A DNA stretch of 64,000 bases from Candidatus Tanganyikabacteria bacterium (GTDB lineage: Bacteria > Cyanobacteriota > Sericytochromatia > S15B-MN24 > VGJW01): the NCBI GenBank assembly GCA_016867235.1, contig VGJY01000001.1, positions 4,038 through 68,037 on the forward strand, given 5' to 3'. The notes under the pieces were generated by a model that did no database searches, was not told the origin of the DNA, and saw nothing but the letters and a program-made list of their open reading frames with translations. Within the stretch, counting starts at the first letter, position 1. Every line of letters begins with the position of its first letter. Positions 3,596-61,738 of the stretch are shown in pieces. The translations under genes and the position numbers were made by a program.

Positions 3596-5098
3596 TCAGC
3601 GGGATCCCAGCTGGATGCGCCGGTCTGCCGGCGGTTCCAGCGTGGGATTCCCCTTGATCCCGTCGAGGACGAAGTCCCTCAGCAGGACGCCCATGTCCTC
3701 GTAGCCCTTGGCCTCGGTGAACGGCGTGTACTTGTCGTTGCCTTGCGCGATGTAGTCGATCGTCGTGATGCGGTAGGTCTTGCCGGGATCCAGCGGGCCG
3801 CCCCCGACGGACAGGTCGGCGATCTGGCCTCCGTCGATGCGGAATGACAGGCCGCTCACCTGCAGCATGCTCACGCGCTTGGACGCGACCATGTCGAGCA
3901 CCTGCTTGAGCTGCGCGCCGGTCATGTCCACCCGGACGATGCGATTCTCGAACGGGAAGACGGTGAACACGTCGGCGACCCTGACGGGGCCGGGATTGAT
4001 CGGTGCGCGCAGGCCGCCGGAGTTGAGGATCGCGACGTCGGCATTGGTCCTGGCGCGGAGTAGATCGGTGGCCCAGTTGCCCAGCTCGCAATCCCGATCG
4101 TACTTGCCGTCGACCGACAGCCCCCTGGGAGCCTGGCCGATCACCTTGGCCATGCGGTCGCGAATCTGGGACTCGTAGCCCTCGACGATCTTCGCCACGC
4201 CGGCGTCCTCGGGCGTGTCGCCCGCGATAGGGACCAGGTAGCCGTTGCTCGAGACGATCTTCCCGCCGTCCACTTCCAGCTCCAGCCGGCCGAGGTACTC
4301 GCCCCACTGGTAGGCCTGCAGCACCAGCGTGGTCCAGTCGCCGCTCTTCACCGCAATCGGCGCATCCACCTTGGTATGGCTGTGCCCGCCCACGATGACG
4401 TGGATGCCCGGCACCTCGGCTGCGAGGCGCTTGTCCTCTTCGAGGCCGCTGTGGCTCATCATCACGATGAAGTCGGCGCCGCGGGCCTTGAGGTCCGCGA
4501 CGGCTTTCTGCGCCACGGGCACCGCCGGCAGGACCTTGAGGCCCTTGCGCTGCGCGGCGGCGATGGCATGCCAGGCGCTGCCCTCGCCCAGGATTCCGAA
4601 GACGCCGACCTTGAGGCCCGAGCGTTCGACCAGCCAGGATGGCACGAAAAGCGGCTTGCCGGTCTGATCGTCCACCAGGTTGGTGTTGATCAGCTTGAAC
4701 TTGCGGCCCTTGTAGACGCGCTGGAGGTTGAGCAGGCCGTCGTCGAGATCGTGATTGCCGACCGTGACCGCATCGTAGCCCGCGGCGTCCATGGCGGCGA
4801 ACTCGGCCTCGCCGTGGAAGAAGTTGAAGATGGGCGTGCCCTGGAAGCAGTCGCCGCCGTCCAGGACCAGCACCCGGCCCGCCTGCTGCGCCTGCTCCTT
4901 CTTGATGATCGTGGCCCGCCGGGCGATCCCGCCGATCGACTTGAGATCCTTCTTGTCGTAGGGCGAAAGGTGGGAGTGCGTGTCGTTGGTGTGCAGGATG
5001 ATCAGCCGCGACGGCGCGGCCTCGGCCGTGGCCGTGGCTCCGCCGAACCCGATGGCGGCGGTGGCGAGAACGATGAGGGCGAGTGTACGGCGAAGCAC
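3596..5098 (-). CDS. Bifunctional metallophosphatase / 5'-nucleotidase (UshA family), exported
   Basis: LHTNDTHSH, GNHDLD and GGHSHT calcineurin-like motifs plus a 5'-nucleotidase C-terminal domain. Maximal ORF reaches 5155, but GTG at 5098 is preceded by AAGGAG and begins the signal peptide LRRTLALIVLATAAIG. Confidence 0.8.
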   Translation of the reverse strand: MLRRTLALIVLATAAIGFGGATATAEAAPSRLIILHTNDTHSHLSPYDKKDLKSIGGIARRATIIKKEQAQQAGRVLVLDGGDCFQGTPIFNFFHGEAEFAAMDAAGYDAVTVGNHDLDDGLLNLQRVYKGRKFKLINTNLVDDQTGKPLFVPSWLVERSGLKVGVFGILGEGSAWHAIAAAQRKGLKVLPAVPVAQKAVADLKARGADFIVMMSHSGLEEDKRLAAEVPGIHVIVGGHSHTKVDAPIAVKSGDWTTLVLQAYQWGEYLGRLELEVDGGKIVSSNGYLVPIAGDTPEDAGVAKIVEGYESQIRDRMAKVIGQAPRGLSVDGKYDRDCELGNWATDLLRARTNADVAILNSGGLRAPINPGPVRVADVFTVFPFENRIVRVDMTGAQLKQVLDMVASKRVSMLQVSGLSFRIDGGQIADLSVGGGPLDPGKTYRITTIDYIAQGNDKYTPFTEAKGYEDMGVLLRDFVLDGIKGNPTLEPPADRRIQLGSR

Positions 5099-9983: not shown

Positions 9984-10679
9984 ATGCCTTCCGTGAGCCA
10001 GATCCTGCGTCAAACTCGGGAAGCCAAGGGCATCACCCTCGACGATGTCGCCCACAAGACCTACATCAAGCTGCCCTACCTGATAGCGCTCGAAGAAGGC
10101 CACATCGACCAGCTTCTCGCCCCGGTGTTCGTCTACGGCAACATCCGCCAGTACGCCCGGTTGCTGGGCCTCAATGCCGAAGAACTCGTGCTGCAGTACC
10201 AGCAGGAAGCCAGGCGCGAGCATCCGAAGCTGGCGGCGATGCCCGTGCTGTCGACCGCCGACGCCGACCTCGTGCGCATCCCGGTCTATGCCATGGCCGA
10301 GGCCGGAAACGGCAACGGCAACCTGCGCGCCGGCGCCAACGGCCATGCCGAGCCGGAGACCGGCTCCGTGCCCGCCGACGACGTCCTGCAGCCGATCACG
10401 GCCGCCGAAGTCCACCTGGTCGAAAGGAAGGTGTCAATGGAGCGCCCCCACCCCGTCGCCTTCCAGGGCTCCGACAAGGACGTCGCCGCCGCGCAGACCG
10501 AGGCGCAGCGCATCGTCGCCGAGGCGCAGCGGGAAGCCGACCGCCTCCGGCGGGACGCCGAGAAGTACGCCTTCCAGGTCCTGTCCGATCTGGAGGCCGA
10601 GCTGGGCCGCACCCTGGCCATCATCAAGAATGGCCGGCAGTACCTCCAGCAGCGCCGCCGCCAGCGCCCGGACGCCTGA
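9984..10679 (+). CDS. Helix-turn-helix domain protein (RodZ-like N-terminus, coiled-coil C-terminus)
   Basis: N-terminus LRQTREAKGITLDDVAHKTYIKLPYLIALEEGHIDQLLAPVFVYGNIRQYARLLGL matches the XRE/RodZ HTH module. TGcTAAAAT extended -10 about 55 nt upstream. Confidence 0.65.
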   Translation: MPSVSQILRQTREAKGITLDDVAHKTYIKLPYLIALEEGHIDQLLAPVFVYGNIRQYARLLGLNAEELVLQYQQEARREHPKLAAMPVLSTADADLVRIPVYAMAEAGNGNGNLRAGANGHAEPETGSVPADDVLQPITAAEVHLVERKVSMERPHPVAFQGSDKDVAAAQTEAQRIVAEAQREADRLRRDAEKYAFQVLSDLEAELGRTLAIIKNGRQYLQQRRRQRPDA

Positions 10680-10850
10680 TAGCGCAGCTCGCATGACTTC
10701 GCTCCGGCATGGCGGCCGGCACGGAGGCCGGCCCCACCCGCCGCATCGGTGGCGCAGGCCTCCGTGCCTGCGGCAGAGAGGCGCTAGGCCAATTGAGAAG
10801 CGCTGCTATGGCGTCGCCGGCTGCTTCGTTACGCCGCTGCCTCCCGGCCT
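10677..10850. repeat. Interspersed ~170-bp element, copy 1, containing a conserved stem-loop (GCACGGAGGCC...GGCCTCCGTGC)
   Basis: About 85% identical over >110 nt (weaker to ~170 nt) to the reverse complement of 40610-40786. Both copies begin exactly at a TGA stop (TGATAGCGC.GCTC...). Occupies the convergent gap between the HTH gene and flhG. Confidence 0.5.
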
Positions 10851-37225: not shown

Positions 37226-38362
37226 GTGGTGTCGACGAGCGGATTTGCGACGCATGACGCGCGCTGCGGGTTGTGCCAGTTCACCTTCGAGGCGCTTGCC
37301 CCCCGAGCGCGAGGTAGCGTGCTGCGGTGGCGCGACTCGGATCGGTGCCCGTGGTACGAGGGACCGAACCCGGTGTTCTACGCGGTCTGGGTCTGCCCAA
37401 GCTGCCACTTCGCGGCCTTCAGGGAGGAGTTCGCGAGCTCTCCCGGAAAGGCGCGGGACGCTGTCCAGGAGGCCCTTGCCGCGAGCGCCCCGTCCGCGGC
37501 GGCCGTCGCATTCGACGGCACCGAGCGCAGCCTGTTCGCGGCACTCACCAGTTACCAGCTGGCCCTGACCTGCTACGAGGCGCGCAAGGCGGCGCCGGAG
37601 GTGCTGGCGGGCTTGGCGCTTCGCGCCGCCTGGATCTGCCGCTACGCCGGCGAATTGCGGCGCGAGATAGGGTTCCTGGCCAAGGCGCGCGACCAGTATC
37701 TCGAGGCGTTCGAGCGCGGCGTGCGCCGTGACGCGCTCCTGGACGATCTGGCGATCGCGTTCCTGGTCGGCGAGCTGCAACTGCGTACGGGGCAAATCGG
37801 CGAGGCGTGGCAGTACTTTCGCGTGGTCCAGGAGGCGAAGGATACCGCGCCCGTCCTGGCGGCCCTGGCCCGCGAACGGCAGGGTGACGCCATGCGCGCG
37901 CAGCGGGTGCGGGAGTTCCTCGAAAAGGTGCCGATGTTCGTGCCGCTGGGCGAGCGGGGGCTCTCGCTCGTCTCGGTCCACGGGAGTGAGCAGACGTACC
38001 GGCCGGGCGCGGCCATCGTGAGCAAGGGTGGCGCCGGCGAGGCGATGTTCGCCATACTCTCGGGCGAAGTGCGACTGTACAATGCCGAGGAGCCCCAGGG
38101 CGAGCCGATCGTCACGCTGCGGCCCGGCGAGACCTTCGGCGAGATGGCGCTGTTCACCGGCGACGCGCACCCCGAGACCGCCGTGGCCTGGGCTCCGGCC
38201 CGGGGCGGCGACAAGGTTGTGGTGCTGGAGATCAACCGCACCGTGTTCCGCAACCTCGTAAAGGCCGTACCGGACGTGGCGTTGCGGGTGGCCGTCGCCA
38301 TGTCGCAGCGCTACGCGCGGGCCGCGCATGCCGAGGTGTTGCCGGAGCCTTCTCCGGTGTGA
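37226..38362 (+). CDS. DUF2225-like zinc-ribbon/TPR-like domain fused to a cyclic-nucleotide-binding (cNMP) domain
   Basis: CGLCQ...CPWYEGPNPVFYAVWVCPSCHFAAF then a cNMP fold (GGAGEAMFAILSGEVRLY...GETFGEMALFTG). Paralog of 60470-61738. GTG start inferred by alignment with the paralog. Confidence 0.65.
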   Translation: MVSTSGFATHDARCGLCQFTFEALAPRARGSVLRWRDSDRCPWYEGPNPVFYAVWVCPSCHFAAFREEFASSPGKARDAVQEALAASAPSAAAVAFDGTERSLFAALTSYQLALTCYEARKAAPEVLAGLALRAAWICRYAGELRREIGFLAKARDQYLEAFERGVRRDALLDDLAIAFLVGELQLRTGQIGEAWQYFRVVQEAKDTAPVLAALARERQGDAMRAQRVREFLEKVPMFVPLGERGLSLVSVHGSEQTYRPGAAIVSKGGAGEAMFAILSGEVRLYNAEEPQGEPIVTLRPGETFGEMALFTGDAHPETAVAWAPARGGDKVVVLEINRTVFRNLVKAVPDVALRVAVAMSQRYARAAHAEVLPEPSPV

Positions 38363-38381
38363 ACCGGGCTGCGTTTCTGCC

Positions 38382-38476
38382 TGGGCACGGCTTGCCGTCC
38401 TTCACGCAGGCAGGCAGCCGCCCGCCATCGTGACGCTTTTCGTAGGTTCCCCGCGGGCGGGGATAGCGTGTTAGGA
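38382..38476. repeat. ~95-bp direct repeat, copy A (flanks the COG1373 ATPase gene; overlaps its last 6 nt)
   Basis: About 85% identical to 40011-40105 in the same orientation; contains the CCCCGCGGGCGGGG hairpin. Confidence 0.6.
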
Positions 38477-39802
38477 GCCGGACCCTGCACCTCTGGCCGC
38501 GCCGTCGAGCAGGAAGCGCCAGGCAGGAGTCACCTCGATTCGCCGGCCTTCGCTCTCGAGAACCTCCTGCTCGCTCCACGTCACCACGGTTGCCGCCTTG
38601 GCCTCCACCTCGCGCATCGCCTCCCCGAGGGCCGCCAACTCGCGCTTGCGAGTCGCCCGGTCCGCCAACGACTGGCTGACTTGGACGAGTGCGGGGACGC
38701 GACCGCGATCCGGTATCGCGAAGTCCACTTCGCGGCCCGTCCGGGTCCGGTAGTAGCGGATCTCGGAGTGCCGGCGCCGCAGCGCCATGAATACCAGGTT
38801 TTCGAGGAGGTGGCCCGAGTTGACGAGGAGCCCTGACGTCACCGACGTGACCAGGGAGTGGTCAACGCAGTAGATCTTCTTCGGGTTGGCGAGGCTCCTG
38901 GTCAGCGAGGCGTCGTGGAGACGCACGGTGAACAGGAAGTATGCATCCTCGAACCACTCCAGGTACTCGGAGACCGCGGCCTTGGGTGCCCTGTGCCCGA
39001 GAGCCTTGAGATGCCCGGTGAGACCGTTGATGGAGTAAAGCGACCCCGCGTTGTCGATCAGCCAGTAGGCCAGATCCGTCAGAGCCTTGGGGTGAGAGAT
39101 GTCGTGGCGTTCGATCAGGTCCCTGAACAGGATCGCGTTCAGGTAGTCCTGGTGGGTGGCGATCCGCAGATCGCGCCGCAGTCCGGCTACCTCGGGAAAT
39201 CCCCCCTCGGCCCAGTAGCGCTCGAAGGCGTCCTGCACCAGCAGCCTGCCGCGTGTGGAGAGGGCTTCTCCGGCCGGCACGCCCGCGAATCTCAGGTATT
39301 CCCGGAAAGAAAACGGGAACAGCTCCCAGGACAGGGCACGGCCACGCATCTGCGTGGCGACTTCCTTCGACAGGAGCTTCGCCGACGAGCCGGTCAGGTA
39401 GATCTGGCACTTCTCGGTGCGCAAGAGCCGGTCGATGAAGGGCTCCCAGCCCGGCACCATCTGGATCTCGTCGAAGAAGCAGTGGACGGTCTCGGTATCC
39501 TTCTTCGCCGGATAGAGGCCGAAGTAGGCCTCGACGATCGCGCCGAGGTCGTCGTGCCGCATACCGTGAAGGCGGTCGTCGAAGAAGTTGAGGTACAGGA
39601 TGTTCTCGCGAGGCACATCGCGGGCGAGCAAGCCATGCATGACCTGGGACAGGTAGGTCGACTTGCCGCACCGGCGAACGCCCACCAGGACGGTGGCCTT
39701 GCCCGGGACAGGTGCCACCTGCAACTCCCTCGGAACGCCCGGCTCCAGACGACCATCCTGAGAATCCAGGATGAGCGCCTTGAGCATCTCGACGAGGGAC
39801 AT
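38471..39802 (-). CDS. AAA+ ATPase of the COG1373 family (AAA_14 + DUF4143)
   Basis: Walker A VGVRRCGKST; conserved COG1373 architecture; 443 aa. Confidence 0.8.
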   Translation of the reverse strand: MSLVEMLKALILDSQDGRLEPGVPRELQVAPVPGKATVLVGVRRCGKSTYLSQVMHGLLARDVPRENILYLNFFDDRLHGMRHDDLGAIVEAYFGLYPAKKDTETVHCFFDEIQMVPGWEPFIDRLLRTEKCQIYLTGSSAKLLSKEVATQMRGRALSWELFPFSFREYLRFAGVPAGEALSTRGRLLVQDAFERYWAEGGFPEVAGLRRDLRIATHQDYLNAILFRDLIERHDISHPKALTDLAYWLIDNAGSLYSINGLTGHLKALGHRAPKAAVSEYLEWFEDAYFLFTVRLHDASLTRSLANPKKIYCVDHSLVTSVTSGLLVNSGHLLENLVFMALRRRHSEIRYYRTRTGREVDFAIPDRGRVPALVQVSQSLADRATRKRELAALGEAMREVEAKAATVVTWSEQEVLESEGRRIEVTPAWRFLLDGAARGAGSGS

Positions 39803-39817
39803 CGTCTTGTCTCCTGA

Positions 39818-39833
39818 GATCGGTAAAGAACTT
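39818..39833. promoter_or_regulatory. Perfect 16-bp palindrome GGTAAAGAACTTTACC between the putative promoter and the RBS of the COG1373 ATPase gene (candidate operator)
   Basis: Direct reading; located 16-31 nt upstream of the ATG (39802), minus strand. Confidence 0.35.
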
Positions 39834-39955
39834 TACCACTTTTTGCAGAAACCGGCAACAAGAGTTTCCGATCGGGCAGGCGAGGCGGTCCAACGGGCTC
39901 TGCTTCATGCCGGCGCCGAGCAGCATGGCCTCGGTGCCGGCGTCGCGCCGATCGG

Positions 39956-39998
39956 TGTCGAGACGGTCGGCGTCGAGACGGTCGGCGTCGCGGCCGGC
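39956..39998. repeat. Short tandem repeat (~2.7 x 15 bp, gtcgagacggtcggc)
   Basis: Direct reading. Confidence 0.4.
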
Positions 39999-40010
39999 CT
40001 GGCGCTCAGG

Positions 40011-40105
40011 TGGGCACGGTCGGCCGTCCTTCACGCAGGCAGGCGACCGCCTGGCATCGTGACGTTTTTCGTAGATTCCCCGCCGGCGGGGCTGGCGTGT
40101 AAAGA
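40011..40105. repeat. ~95-bp direct repeat, copy B
   Basis: Matches 38382-38476. Confidence 0.6.
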
Positions 40106-40221
40106 TTGATGTGAATTCACCGCCGGTGTTGAGAATCTCTCTCAACAAGCCCCTCGAATGTGTCGTAGTGTCACTTTCGAGGTTAACTTAACCTTTCGGG
40201 TCGTGATGGGCCTGGACCGAC

Positions 40222-40473
40222 CTATCGGGCGCCATCTCGGGGGGCGACCCAGAATGGCGGTGTCCTTCCTGTGCGAGAGACAAGCACGCGTCCGACCCCG
40301 CCGCGTAACGCGGTCTTGATGCGCTTCGCCATCGGCTCGCGCTGCGGGGTCCTCCAGCGGTCGGTGAAAACGCACGGCAGAACCTGCTCGAAGCCCAGGT
40401 CCCGTCGCGCCTGCTCGACCTTGTGGTAGGTCGAGCAGGCGCGACGTCCACGACGACGAGCCATGTCCCGAAG
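40222..40473 (-). pseudogene. Possible gene remnant encoding a basic 83-aa peptide (MARRRGRRACSTYHKVEQARRDLGFEQ...)
   Basis: ORF with atypically low GC3 and rare CGT codons for this genome, inside a degenerate segment between repeats; no confident homology. Confidence 0.2.
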
Positions 40474-40609
40474 CTCACCATCGGATGCGTAGCGCCTGGA
40501 GCGGGGGACCACCTTGGAGCCAGTCTCGCAGGCGGACGGCGTGGTGATCCAGGTGGGCCGCAAGGGGGCGTTCCTCGCCTCCCCACGGCGTGGGCCTCTG
40601 CAGCGCCTC

Positions 40610-40786
40610 GGTCCGCCCGGGGAAGGGGTCGCCAAGCACTTGCTTGATGGCGCCTCATAGCGGCGCTCAAATGACCTGGCGCCTATCGGACGCAGGCACG
40701 GAGGCCTGCGCCACCGATGCAACGGGTGGGGCCGGCCTCCGTGCCGGCCGCGATGCCGGAGCGAAGTCATCAGAGCCGCGCTATCA
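40610..40786. repeat. Interspersed ~170-bp hairpin-containing element, copy 2 (inverted relative to copy 1)
   Basis: Reverse complement aligns to 10677-10850; begins at the TGA stop of the 66-aa ORF (40784-40786). Confidence 0.5.
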
Positions 40787-40984
40787 GTAGAGCGATCCCG
40801 CCCGGCCTGCGGCCGCGAAGATCTTCCGCCGGGCGGCGGCGATGTCCTTGGCGTCGATGTAGTCCAGGGAGTCGGCGCCTTTCCTGATCTCCTCGGCGAC
40901 GTCACGGAGTGTGGACCCGACGGGCGTCTTGAGCCGTCCCTGGTACTTCGCCAGGTACCTGAGCATCCGGTCCTGGTTGCGCAT
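40784..40984 (-). CDS. Hypothetical small protein (66 aa)
   Basis: ORF with protein-like composition immediately downstream of the second COG1373 ATPase; no family assignment. Confidence 0.4.
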   Translation of the reverse strand: MRNQDRMLRYLAKYQGRLKTPVGSTLRDVAEEIRKGADSLDYIDAKDIAAARRKIFAAAGRAGSLY

Positions 40985-41131
40985 CTTGGCACCGATGAGA
41001 TCCCGGGAAACCGGGATGGAAAGAGGACCCTGTCTACCGACCCCAGCGAGGTCGCAATGACGGGCACCCCTTCACTCATTGACCCTTGCTTGGTTATCTT
41101 TTCCCCGGCCAAGGCGCGACAAAGCAGATCC

Positions 41132-42400
41132 TCATGGCCCCAGGGCCCCGACCGGAATGACGAGCACTCCGTCGTCGCGCCGGTACGTGTATCCCGTGGC
41201 GGTGAGGACTCCGAGACAGGCGGGCTTGCGAACGGTTCGCCCGGCCAACCTGAGCAGGGCCGTCGCGGCGGCGTCGATGTCGGCTGCGCCGAGCTTCACC
41301 TCGAAGGCGGCCCAGGCGCCGTCTTCCCTTTCGATCACCGCGTCGCATTCGAGATCTCCCTTTTCCTCGCGATAGTGCAGCACGGAGGCACGGGCGGCCT
41401 GGGCGAAGACCCTGAGATCCCGCACCACCAGCGACTCGAACAGGAAGCCAAAAGTACGCAGATCCCCGAGGAGGCCGGCCGCGTCGCGATGCAAGAGGGC
41501 GGCCGCAAGGGCGGGATCGGCCAGGTGCCGCTTGGGCGCGGCGGTCAGACGCGAGCGCGATCTCAGTTCCGGCTGCCAGGCTGGCTGGTCTTCCACGACC
41601 ATGAGCCGTGCAAGTGCATCGAGATACTCCGTTCCTGTCCATCTCGAAGGGCCGCCGCCAGCGCCGCCGCCAGCATCCTCGCCCGCCGCCCGCTGGACGA
41701 TCGTGGCGAGCCTGGCGGGGTGAGCGACGACCTGCGCGAAGGCGTGCAAGAAGCGCCGGACGCGCACCGGATCGCGACGAACGCCGTCGACGGTGTGGAT
41801 GTCGATGTCGACGATCGTATCGACGTAACCGCGATTGAACCGTACGGCTGCTTGCTCGTCTGCCATGAGGAGAGCGGGCCAGCCCCCTGTTGCGACTTCG
41901 CTGGCATAGTCCCTCACGGTCAATTCTGATCGCGCCGGCTCCGGTCCCTCTCCGTCGAGCAGCCGGGAAATGGAGGCTGCGCCCGAAGACTTCCCGCGTT
42001 CGAACAGCGTCATGGGGCGCATCTGCACTATCGAGAACCTTCCAGCTCCGCCATGGCGCCGGATGTCGGCCGGACGCCGTGCCGAACCCGTCAACAGGAA
42101 CTGTCCCGCCAGGCCTCGATCGTCCACGGCGCGCCGGACCGCGTTCCAGATCTCCGGAACGATTTGCCACTCATCCAGCAAGCGCGGCGTCGGGCCGTCA
42201 AGGACCAACCGGGGATCCACTCTCGCAGCCAGCGCCGCCTGGGGGTCCAGGTCGAGCAAGACCTCGCTTCCGGCATGTTGGCGAGCGGACTCGGTCTTGC
42301 CGCAGGCCTTCGGCCCCTCGATCGCGACCGCTCCAAGGGCACTCATGGCGTCGCTGACCTCGCGGTCCACGACGCGGGGTCGGTAGGTTCTTCTGGTCAT
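41132..42400 (-). CDS. AAA+ ATPase of the COG1373 family (second copy)
   Basis: Walker A IEGPKACGKTE; DUF4143-type C-terminus; 422 aa. Confidence 0.8.
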   Translation of the reverse strand: MTRRTYRPRVVDREVSDAMSALGAVAIEGPKACGKTESARQHAGSEVLLDLDPQAALAARVDPRLVLDGPTPRLLDEWQIVPEIWNAVRRAVDDRGLAGQFLLTGSARRPADIRRHGGAGRFSIVQMRPMTLFERGKSSGAASISRLLDGEGPEPARSELTVRDYASEVATGGWPALLMADEQAAVRFNRGYVDTIVDIDIHTVDGVRRDPVRVRRFLHAFAQVVAHPARLATIVQRAAGEDAGGGAGGGPSRWTGTEYLDALARLMVVEDQPAWQPELRSRSRLTAAPKRHLADPALAAALLHRDAAGLLGDLRTFGFLFESLVVRDLRVFAQAARASVLHYREEKGDLECDAVIEREDGAWAAFEVKLGAADIDAAATALLRLAGRTVRKPACLGVLTATGYTYRRDDGVLVIPVGALGP

Positions 42401-42426
42401 TACCGACAGTTCTCGAGACGAGAGTC

Positions 42427-42518
42427 CACAGTATCCGAAGATCCAAGTCTACAGTTACCGACCGATTCAGTCTACGGTTTCCGAGCGAACCGGTCAACAA
42501 CTTCCGAGGATGCCAATC
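42427..42518. repeat. Four tandem 23-bp direct repeats (consensus tACAGTTtCCGAnnnannnaGTC) in the divergent region between the COG1373 ATPase and the alpha-2-macroglobulin gene
   Basis: Motif starts at 42428, 42451, 42474 and 42497 with exact 23-bp spacing. Confidence 0.5.
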
Positions 42519-42686
42519 GGGCTCGCCTAGCCACCGCCGTCTGTCGAGGTCGGAGCGGGGCCTGGCATCCAGGGGATTCGACGCTGCATCCGACAGTCTG
42601 AAACTTTGCTCGCAAGCAATCCGGTCTAAGATGCATTAGCCAGCCAGGTCGGGTTGGTTGGCCTTGAGAGACAGGCGGGACTCGAA

Positions 42687-60469: not shown

Positions 60470-61738
60470 CTACTCTTCCGCGTGGACGCCGAAGAAGCGC
60501 TTGATCTTGTCCAGCAGGATCGACTGCTCGTGCTCGCGGGCGGCATCCGACGCCCCGGCGGCCGCCACTTCGCGCGGCGGCGCTTCGGCCGGCGCACCGG
60601 CCGCGACATGGGCAGGCACTCCGGCGTTCTGGGCCTTGCGCGAGGAGATCTTCTCGGCCACGCCCTGCGCGACCTCCGGCACGACCTTCAGCAGGTTGCG
60701 CACCGCCGGCTTGCGGATCTCGATCAGTTCGACGTACGGTTCGGGCTGCCCCTTGCGGTGCGGCGCGTCGTCGCCGGCGACGACAGTGGCGCTGCGCGGC
60801 TCGCCGGTGAACAGGCTCATCTCGCCGATGGTGTCGCCCGCGCCGAGGACCGCGACCGGATCGCAGGCGGCGGGATCGTCGAGGTACACCCGCACCTTGC
60901 CGCTCGCGATGACGTACATCGACTCCCCGGCCTCGCCCTTGGTGCACACGGTCGTGCCCGGCTTGAAGGACTTGATCTCCGTGTTGACGGCCAGGAGACC
61001 GCGGCCCTGATCGCCCATGGGGCCAAGGAGCGCGATGTCGTCCAGGATCTCCTTGACGCGGACGGCCTGCTTCGAGTCGTAGAGCCGATCCTTCGCGGAG
61101 CGGCCCAGGTTGTCCTTGGCGTCCGGCGCCTGGATCAGCAGCATGAAATAGCGCATCGCGTCGGGTATCTTGCCGGTGCGGAGCATCAGCTCCCCGATCA
61201 GGAAGGCGACCTGGAGATCGTCGACGTGCTTGTCGCGCCGCAGGCCGCCCTCGAACGCCTCCTTGTAGAGGTCGCGGGCCATCTCCAGGAATCCCAGCTC
61301 GCGGCGCAACTCGCCGGAGTAGCGGCACATCCAGCCGGCTCGCAGGGCCACGCCGGCACGGACCTCGGCCGGGAAGGAGCGGGCGGTGTAGCTGTTGAGG
61401 GCTAGCTGGAAGCTTCGGAGAGCCGCGAACAGGGAGCGCTCGACCTGGTTGTAGTTGACCGCCATCCCTAGCTGATCGGCCTTGAGGAGATCGCGCAGCG
61501 GGCCGAGGGAGCGCGGCTCGAGGGTCTTGAAATCATCCTTGTACGCCGCGAACTTGCAGGATGGACAGACCCAGACCAGGTAGTAGAGCGGATTCGGGCC
61601 CGAGTAGTACGGGCAGAAGTCGTTGTCGCGCCGCAGCAGGCTCGCGGAATGGGCGCGCGGCGTATAGTACGTGAACACCGCCTCGCAGAGCGGGCACGTA
61701 ACCTCGCGGCTGACCATCGCGTTTCCGCTCTGGGACAT
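60470..61738 (-). CDS. DUF2225-like zinc-ribbon/TPR-like domain fused to a cNMP-binding domain (paralog of 37226-38362)
   Basis: CPLCE...CPYYSGPNPLYYLVWVCPSCKFAAY plus a cNMP fold (GEAGESMYVIASGKVRVY...GDTIGEMSLFTG). Confidence 0.7.
   Translation of the reverse strand: MSQSGNAMVSREVTCPLCEAVFTYYTPRAHSASLLRRDNDFCPYYSGPNPLYYLVWVCPSCKFAAYKDDFKTLEPRSLGPLRDLLKADQLGMAVNYNQVERSLFAALRSFQLALNSYTARSFPAEVRAGVALRAGWMCRYSGELRRELGFLEMARDLYKEAFEGGLRRDKHVDDLQVAFLIGELMLRTGKIPDAMRYFMLLIQAPDAKDNLGRSAKDRLYDSKQAVRVKEILDDIALLGPMGDQGRGLLAVNTEIKSFKPGTTVCTKGEAGESMYVIASGKVRVYLDDPAACDPVAVLGAGDTIGEMSLFTGEPRSATVVAGDDAPHRKGQPEPYVELIEIRKPAVRNLLKVVPEVAQGVAEKISSRKAQNAGVPAHVAAGAPAEAPPREVAAAGASDAAREHEQSILLDKIKRFFGVHAEE

Follow-up and report, generated by a model that had tools for sequence, protein, structure and literature searches.

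This study concerned a 64,000-nucleotide (nt) stretch of the genome of a Candidatus Tanganyikabacteria bacterium (contig VGJY01000001.1), referred to as the window, in which a gene for a predicted AAA+ ATPase, ATPase1 (38471-39802, minus strand), stands between two direct repeats of 95 nt. The repeats, copy 1 (38382-38476) and copy 2 (40011-40105), both listed on the plus strand, lie in the same orientation within an islet of about 4.25 kb (38327-42577, with edges placed to about ±5 nt), the left edge of which is 55 nt before the start of copy 1. The islet also carries a second gene of the same domain composition, ATPase2 (41132-42400, minus strand). What is new here is a repeat-bounded putative cassette with a single gene of the PDC-S01 family, located in a small defence-type islet; elements that are flanked by attachment (att) sites and have no integrase, as well as defence islets, were already known. 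The window is otherwise ordinary chromosome, with flagellar genes and genes for TsaD, GluRS and MoxR-type proteins.

Concerning the two gene products, ATPase1 (443 aa) matches the Pfam families AAA_14 (7.6e-35) and DUF4143 (1.4e-15) and retains Walker A, Walker B and every family-invariant residue, in agreement with an initial annotation made from the DNA letters, which had called the bracketed gene a COG1373/DUF4143 ATPase. The second COG1373 copy that it had placed nearby was recovered as ATPase2; despite sharing the same two domains, the two proteins showed no similarity by BLASTP. Both match PADLOC models of PDC-S01 strongly (ATPase1, PDLC04787, 9.8e-106, 352 bits; ATPase2, PDLC04790, 9.5e-66, 220 bits), and both have the PDC-S01 architecture, in which an AAA ATPase is fused to a domain of the PD-(D/E)XK superfamily (AAA_14 plus DUF4143). 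DUF4143 has been described as a PD-(D/E)XK family of unknown function (PMC3424549). The AlphaFold model is mediocre (predicted local distance difference test score, pLDDT, of 65) and its Foldseek matches are to generic AAA+ proteins only; together they back an N-terminal AAA+ fold, and the model leaves the C-terminal fold undefined. No relative has a solved structure.

PDC-S01 has been reported as the fourth commonest defence-type locus across prokaryotes, consisting of an ATPase fused to a PD-(D/E)XK domain, with antiviral activity still unvalidated and validation pending for most PDCs (PMC12988326). PDC candidates were drawn from genes "embedded" inside other defence systems (bioRxiv 10.1101/2024.01.29.577857). 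The defence link that the initial annotation had drawn for this ATPase family is borne out by its place in the catalogue as the defence candidate PDC-S01. The family is defined by its protein profile alone, to which the window adds flanking repeats and a conserved operator; the literature searched on PDC-S01 mentions neither direct repeats at its flanks nor an operator that is conserved nor movement in the manner of a cassette.

The exact sequence of ATPase1 is on record as MBM3266046.1, a protein of a Candidatus Sericytochromatia/Tanganyikabacteria metagenome-assembled genome. Among its relatives, none exceeds 70% identity and hundreds fall at 65-70%, in Betaproteobacteria, Acidobacteriota, Desulfobacterota, Spirochaetes, Actinomycetota and other groups. 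Homologues on plasmids reach at most 36% identity, those in phages are distant only, and E. coli genomes contained none. The GC content at third codon positions (GC3) is 0.77 for ATPase2, 0.86 for ATPase1 and about 0.90 for host genes, and the lower value suggests that ATPase2 may have been acquired more recently or separately.

The repeat finder returned a single 95-nt family with exactly two copies, identical at 81 of 95 positions (85%) and spaced 1629 nt apart. When the copies were aligned with 130 nt of context, their similarity began and ended abruptly on both sides, and the window contains their conserved blocks just twice, where chance predicts 0.00-0.05 occurrences. These data demonstrate that the two repeats are a real, non-chance feature, and the earlier description of two direct repeats of about 85% identity, each with a hairpin, holds, since the hairpin CCCCGC(G/C)GGCGGGG is present in both copies. 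In the 3' third of the repeat, GTAG is followed by a GC-rich hairpin (GTAGGTTCCCCGCGGGCGGGG), and the string GTAG(G/A)TTCCCCGC(G/C)GGCGGGG was found in both copies. Copy 1 ends in GTTAGGA and copy 2 in GTAAAGA, and the two ends of the repeat lack complementarity. The further statement that the copies bracket the gene precisely is correct at the 3' end, where copy 1 shares 6 nt with ATPase1 (its final sense codon and its stop codon), and incorrect at the 5' end, where 208 nt separate the start codon from copy 2 upstream of it.

A third copy was not found in the window by self-BLAST, nhmmer or a covariance model, and the covariance model recovered only the two known copies from 208 kb of retrieved loci. 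Both 95-mers gave zero matches to plasmids and phages, and the second conserved block of the repeat gave zero matches in viral contigs. The 19-mer GTCCTTCACGCAGGCAGGC was scanned against 185,579 species genomes and against JGI metagenomes, neither of which includes the source genome, and gave six chance matches in each; these extend over 19-22 nt only, except for one reaching 28 nt with two mismatches. A protein-coding origin of the repeat was also considered, as one plus-strand frame is open in both copies, and was rejected: the frame shows eight non-synonymous changes against one synonymous change and matches no family.

The nature of the islet was established by comparison with relatives. 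The gene into which it falls, gene A (37319-38362, plus strand), encodes DUF2225 and cNMP-binding domains by Pfam, and its orthologues P0122 and P0125 were compared with it at the C-terminus. Two long contigs with gene A orthologues of 75% and 69% protein identity, L047 and L048, are collinear with the window over about 28.8-52.4 kb. In both, gene A is followed directly by the gene for an alpha-2-macroglobulin (A2M, 2,100 aa), with a gap of 93 nt in L047 and 54 nt in L048, against 4.29 kb in the window. Homology to the relatives ends about 14 codons before the gene A stop, and the original last 14-17 codons or so have been lost; the final 12 codons of the present gene (AHAEVLPEPSPV*) come from the islet (38327-38362). 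At the far end of the islet, the former 3' end of gene A, now displaced and reading ..RRCIRQSETLLASNPV*, survives at 42578-42631 (plus strand), just before the motif GGTCTAAGA, which is conserved upstream of the A2M gene; in the junction alignment, this tail is comparable with ..DDETLPAGLSV* of L048. Based on the adjacency of the two genes in the relatives and the survival of the old tail, about 4.25 kb was evidently inserted into the 3' end of gene A, and the islet is, on this comparison, a lineage-specific insertion.

The discrete insertion proposed in the initial annotation is therefore supported by two syntenic relatives, in which none of the 4.25 kb is present between the DUF2225-cNMP and A2M genes. 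The empty site that it had predicted, in which one repeat copy would connect 38381 with 40106, was not found; the empty sites in the relatives lack the entire islet together with the repeat. No significant repeat occurs at the islet ends, an apparent 12-nt repeat being not above chance.

The islet is clearly composite. Between the two ATPase genes lie a 66-aa open reading frame (ORF; 40784-40984, minus strand), which has a host-like GC3 of 0.90 and no family match, and a palindromic element of 135 nt with a central hairpin (40656-40787), belonging to a second repeat family. The other copy of this element, at 10676-10810, has 88% identity, inverted orientation and a long central hairpin. Upstream of ATPase2 are 2.7 copies of a 23-nt iteron, AGTCTACAGTTTCCGACAGATCC (42423-42484), and about 550 nt of the islet contain no convincing gene. 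Two explanations for the DNA around copy 2 were rejected: tblastn found no trace of a decayed third ATPase gene beside it, and a continuation of gene A at copy 2, beyond the ATPase, failed because that DNA has no similarity to the tail of the gene A paralogue and the displaced tail is the segment at 42578-42631.

RNAalifold gave a plus-strand fold of 24 pairs for the 95-nt repeat, and none of the 14 differences between the copies breaks a pair: two adjacent pairs are changed on both sides (C-G/U-A to U-A/C-G) and three pairs become G-U wobbles, which on the opposite strand are A-C mismatches. In an alternative fold with three hairpins, six of the differences fall in loops. Both copies thus seem to keep a structure, and a view of one copy as a decaying scar fits badly with this. 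The folding energies of the copies are unremarkable and no better than those of shuffled sequences, and a terminator scan called neither copy.

These observations bear on the possibility that the copies are homologous structured 3' elements or insulators of the ATPase1 and ATPase2 modules, joined by tandem accretion, which might, for example, terminate transcripts reading through from gene A or act as an antisense RNA. No insertion event would then have to be assumed. The changes between the copies fit an RNA fold of the plus strand with its G-U wobbles, copy 1 starts 20 nt past the new gene A stop codon and has a stem followed by TTTT, and the composite make-up of the islet would agree with accretion. 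Against this, the roughly 1 kb that separates copy 2 from the ATPase2 stop consists of unrelated material, no similar 3' element accompanies the homologues of other lineages, and neither the terminator scan nor the folding energies favour such a role. We consider this explanation rather improbable.

The searches for further copies bear in turn on the possibility that the 95-nt sequence is a species-specific dispersed family, resembling repetitive extragenic palindromic (REP) sequences, bacterial interspersed mosaic elements (BIMEs) or miniature inverted-repeat transposable elements, of which two members flank the ATPase gene by happenstance. Such elements gather in intergenic, recently acquired DNA, and the copies would then be no cassette boundaries. 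A REP unit consists of a GTAG-type tetranucleotide beside an imperfect GC-rich palindrome, and the 3' third of the repeat has this look. Like REP, BIME and REPIN elements, the repeat is intergenic and forms a composite of about 100 nt with several hairpins, its stems are conserved in both copies, and the genome does harbour another dispersed palindromic repeat, the 135-nt element, of which the islet contains one copy and the other is 30 kb distant. The repeat differs from these elements in that the 64 kb contain only two copies, in one islet and in one orientation, with none in about 50 other intergenic regions of the window, none in 42 kb of syntenic relatives and no RAYT gene seen. A chance pair would also leave unexplained why unrelated repeats bracket the gene in other lineages, as described below. 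This explanation is regarded as unlikely.

The unit between the repeats contains, in addition to ATPase1, a promoter-operator region (39803-39905, minus strand) with repeated TTACCG/CCGG half-sites. The perfect palindrome and short tandem repeat noted earlier in this upstream region were both recovered: the palindrome GGTAAAGAACTTTACC (39823-39838) overlaps the ATPase1 ribosome-binding site, and the tandem repeat (39938-39990, period 15 nt, 3.5 copies) lies between the operator region and copy 2. The promoter-operator layout is kept upstream of 15 homologues from other lineages (upstream regions of L014-L065), and across phyla it runs from a -35 box TTGAC through AACCGG, ATTACCGG and ACCGGAAA half-sites to the ribosome-binding site. 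Each upstream region has four or five half-sites of the TTACCGG/CCGGAAA type, of which the window palindrome is the last inverted pair. Nucleotide homology across lineages covers the gene and 60-125 nt upstream of its ATG and ends at the stop codon. The conserved layout suggests that the ATPase protein may regulate its own promoter, and the joint conservation of the gene and its upstream stretch indicates that the gene probably travels as a self-regulated module; homologues of 65-70% identity in many phyla, with the promoter-operator conserved, likewise point to transfer as a module.

The association of flanking repeats with this gene was further evaluated in the ATPase family of 64-70% identity, by comparing 1 kb upstream with 1 kb downstream of the gene in 16 lineages with usable flanks. 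Strong flanking direct repeats were found in four of them (E 2e-11 to 4e-93), and the same test applied to 47 other genes of the window gave no strong case, only chance matches of 12-17 nt. The repeats measure 95 nt in the window lineage (85%; E 2e-19, scored on an aligned segment of 69 nt with 90% identity), 184-191 nt in L016-L019 (96-97%; E 4e-93), 29 nt in L027-L030 (97%; E 2e-11), and two blocks of 68 and 77 nt in L037-L040 (87-88%; E 4e-14 and 4e-17). The unique DNA between the repeats is 1534 nt in the window and 1583, 1514 and 1512 nt in the other three lineages, and in all four it consists of the promoter and one ATPase gene. These data suggest that members of this ATPase family may often sit in repeat-bounded units of a single gene. 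Nine lineage-level ATPase loci in IMG/VR included none with flanking repeats.

In the L016 lineage, the repeat is the 3' half (184-191 nt) of the gene for transfer-messenger RNA (tmRNA), on the opposite strand. Beyond the ATPase stop codon stands a complete tmRNA gene (Rfam 176 bits, tag ANDYVYAQAA), and upstream of the ATPase promoter there remains a decayed fragment of the tmRNA 3' part that still has the original terminator. In strain L019, this upstream fragment looks intact and directly adjoins a gene for a tyrosine integrase (L019 1-951); in L017 and L018, a HipA gene occupies the place of the integrase beyond the fragment (L017 322-1626). As the gene beyond the displaced fragment is an integrase or HipA depending on the strain, this ssrA locus is a polymorphic integration hot spot. 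It represents a classic att duplication with elements in tandem, one of them an att-flanked ATPase unit that has no integrase of its own.

In the L027 lineage, the ATPase unit is 99.9% identical to that of L031 from position -143 to +64, yet the flanks are different. In six samples, the contigs of L027-L033 with the homologue P0055 begin 237-238 nt before the ATG, which suggests a recurrent assembly break at the point where flanks differ. The repeats of L037, from a Geobacteraceae homologue, occupy 2456-2801 and 4314-4486 and are diverged copies with a 172-nt indel. The repeated segment contains an unannotated ORF of 100 aa on the opposite strand and adjoins a TumE/HVO_A0114 pair. A RayT/Y1-transposase fragment was considered as the product of the segment, but neither Pfam nor NCBIfam confirmed this and it was treated as an unknown ORF. 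Homologue contigs of 1.55-1.78 kb are over-represented, which hints at a repeat-length unit; this is an uncontrolled statistic and was not used as evidence.

Based on this evidence, we tentatively favour, at somewhat less than an even chance, the view that the ATPase1 unit is an integrase-less, att-flanked cassette mobilised in trans. The unit of 1629 bp comprises one 95-nt copy and a self-contained ATPase-nuclease gene with its own promoter-operator, and it would have entered, or been assembled within, the small two-gene islet by Campbell-type recombination, in which a circular molecule with a single 95-nt copy recombined at another such copy already in place and left the two direct repeats as boundaries resembling attL and attR. 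The recombinase may have acted in trans, either as the tyrosine integrase of a co-resident element or as host homologous recombination. We infer the use of the 95-nt copies as recombination sites, the circular intermediate and the acting enzyme. ATPase1 would be the cargo, as a candidate defence gene, and not the mobility enzyme.

Several of the results described above support this cassette view. They include the absence of the islet from two relatives with the old gene A tail at its far end, the similar size of the unique inserts (1512-1583 nt) and the recurrence of bracketing (4 of 16 lineages against 0 of 47 other genes), the nearly identical L027 and L031 units in two different settings, and the 14 differences between the copies that leave every pair intact. 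The initial annotation had offered att-like sites or the footprint of a circularising element as explanations of the repeats. Bracketing in three other lineages, in one of them by a tmRNA duplication beside a tyrosine integrase, favours that suggestion, but a site with a single repeat was not found and the repeat did not come from the local target.

Other results weigh against the cassette view. Neither a single-repeat empty site nor a circular junction was seen, and the 95-nt repeat is missing from the empty site of the relatives; the local target sequence is not its source. The repeat matches no tRNA or tmRNA by ARAGORN and no Rfam family, either at the gathering score or at E<=10. No integrase or recombinase was detected among the islet ORFs or about 35 window proteins scanned, and no transposase domain. 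The longest perfect block between the copies is 22 nt at 85% identity, and present-day recombination between them would be inefficient for this reason. The structural signal of the repeat comes from two sequences, which are too few for statistics. Finally, the gene occurs in 12 of the 16 lineages with no flanking repeats, an outcome that the initial annotation had named as an argument against a cassette and which weakens the idea of an obligatory cassette boundary.

The recurrence of one-gene units between repeats also raises the possibility that the unit is an autonomous minimal mobile element, in which the AAA+ ATPase/PD-(D/E)XK nuclease itself catalyses insertion and the direct repeats of 29-190 nt are target duplications generated by widely staggered cuts or repair synthesis. 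The ATPase is the sole ORF between the repeats in four lineages, near-identical units occur in different flanks, and an ATPase and a predicted nuclease domain are combined in one protein (PMC3424549); discovery as an "embedded" family (bioRxiv 10.1101/2024.01.29.577857) is also how an insertion element would look. This possibility is opposed by the lack of terminal inverted repeats or conserved ends at the unit, the wide variation of repeat lengths and positions relative to the gene, the repeat-free state of most lineages, and the classical integrase adjoining the tmRNA case. To our knowledge, no known transposition chemistry yields duplications of 95-190 nt, which was also counted against it. 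We regard such autonomy as highly improbable for this unit, and it is equally a long shot that a large PDC-S01 subfamily constitutes a one-gene mobile unit of about 1.5 kb that promotes its own insertion, with long target duplications, into sites like ssrA.

Among known systems, the cassette view places the unit closest to the islands in tRNA and tmRNA genes and to cis-mobilisable elements (CIMEs), which are integrase-less derivatives of genomic islands. As in these, direct repeats flank a discrete insert with no integrase inside the unit, and the window unit, bounded by direct repeats and having no recombinase of its own, would qualify as CIME-like in this respect. The resemblance to islands extends to the L016 homologue, whose repeat is the ssrA 3' half with the gene reconstituted and which has an integrase island alongside in one strain. 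A CIME would be expected to share its att site with an integrase-bearing element of the same genome, and the one analogue observed is L019, where an integrase gene stands beside the repeat. The window repeat differs in being neither a tRNA/tmRNA fragment nor a copy of the local target, and the window unit (1.6 kb, one gene, no integrase gene inside) is far smaller than the described islands.

In integron cassettes, as in the unit, a structured repeat of some 60-140 nt comes after a single gene, and similar repeats in direct orientation bracket the gene. In contrast, an attC site is an imperfect palindrome with complementary RYYYAAC and GTTRRRY ends, whereas the 95-nt repeat is predicted to fold into several local hairpins, its copy 2 lacks the GTT core (ending in GTAAAGA), and no IntI was seen. 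Moreover, a promoterless ORF would be expected in an integron cassette, and ATPase1 has its own conserved promoter-operator. Insertion sequences and transposons differ from the window in having terminal inverted repeats, absent here from both the unit and the islet ends, and a transposase domain; they are also expected to leave a short target duplication of fixed length, in contrast to bracketing repeats of 29-190 nt that differ by lineage.

The function of PDC-S01 and its mode of spread have so far remained unexplained (PMC12988326), and the window together with three other lineages presents the gene as the sole content of an insert of about 1.5 kb. This provides a testable picture of how PDC-S01 might move: as an att-flanked cassette relying on a borrowed recombinase or, with lower probability, through its own nuclease. 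It also calls for caution, as genes prone to insertion can be picked up through "guilt by embedding"; if self-mobility were true, embedding in defence loci would reflect insertion behaviour and not immunity. If, instead, the repeats were ordinary REP-type sequences, the finding would shrink to a small defence islet in a non-photosynthetic relative of the cyanobacteria.

Some minor features of the locus were also recorded. A sigma-70-like promoter match was observed upstream of ATPase2 (42497-42469), and a perfect inverted repeat of 19 nt, with a spacer of 6 nt, lies at 40403-40446, in the gene-poor region that separates copy 2 from the palindromic element. The distant copy of the 135-nt element, at 10676-10810, lies between convergent HTH_25 and ParA/MinD-like genes. 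The paralogue of gene A (60470-61738, minus strand), near which no 95-nt repeat was found, has 46% identity to gene A and a longer low-complexity tail, and is convergent with a gene for a clostripain-family peptidase.

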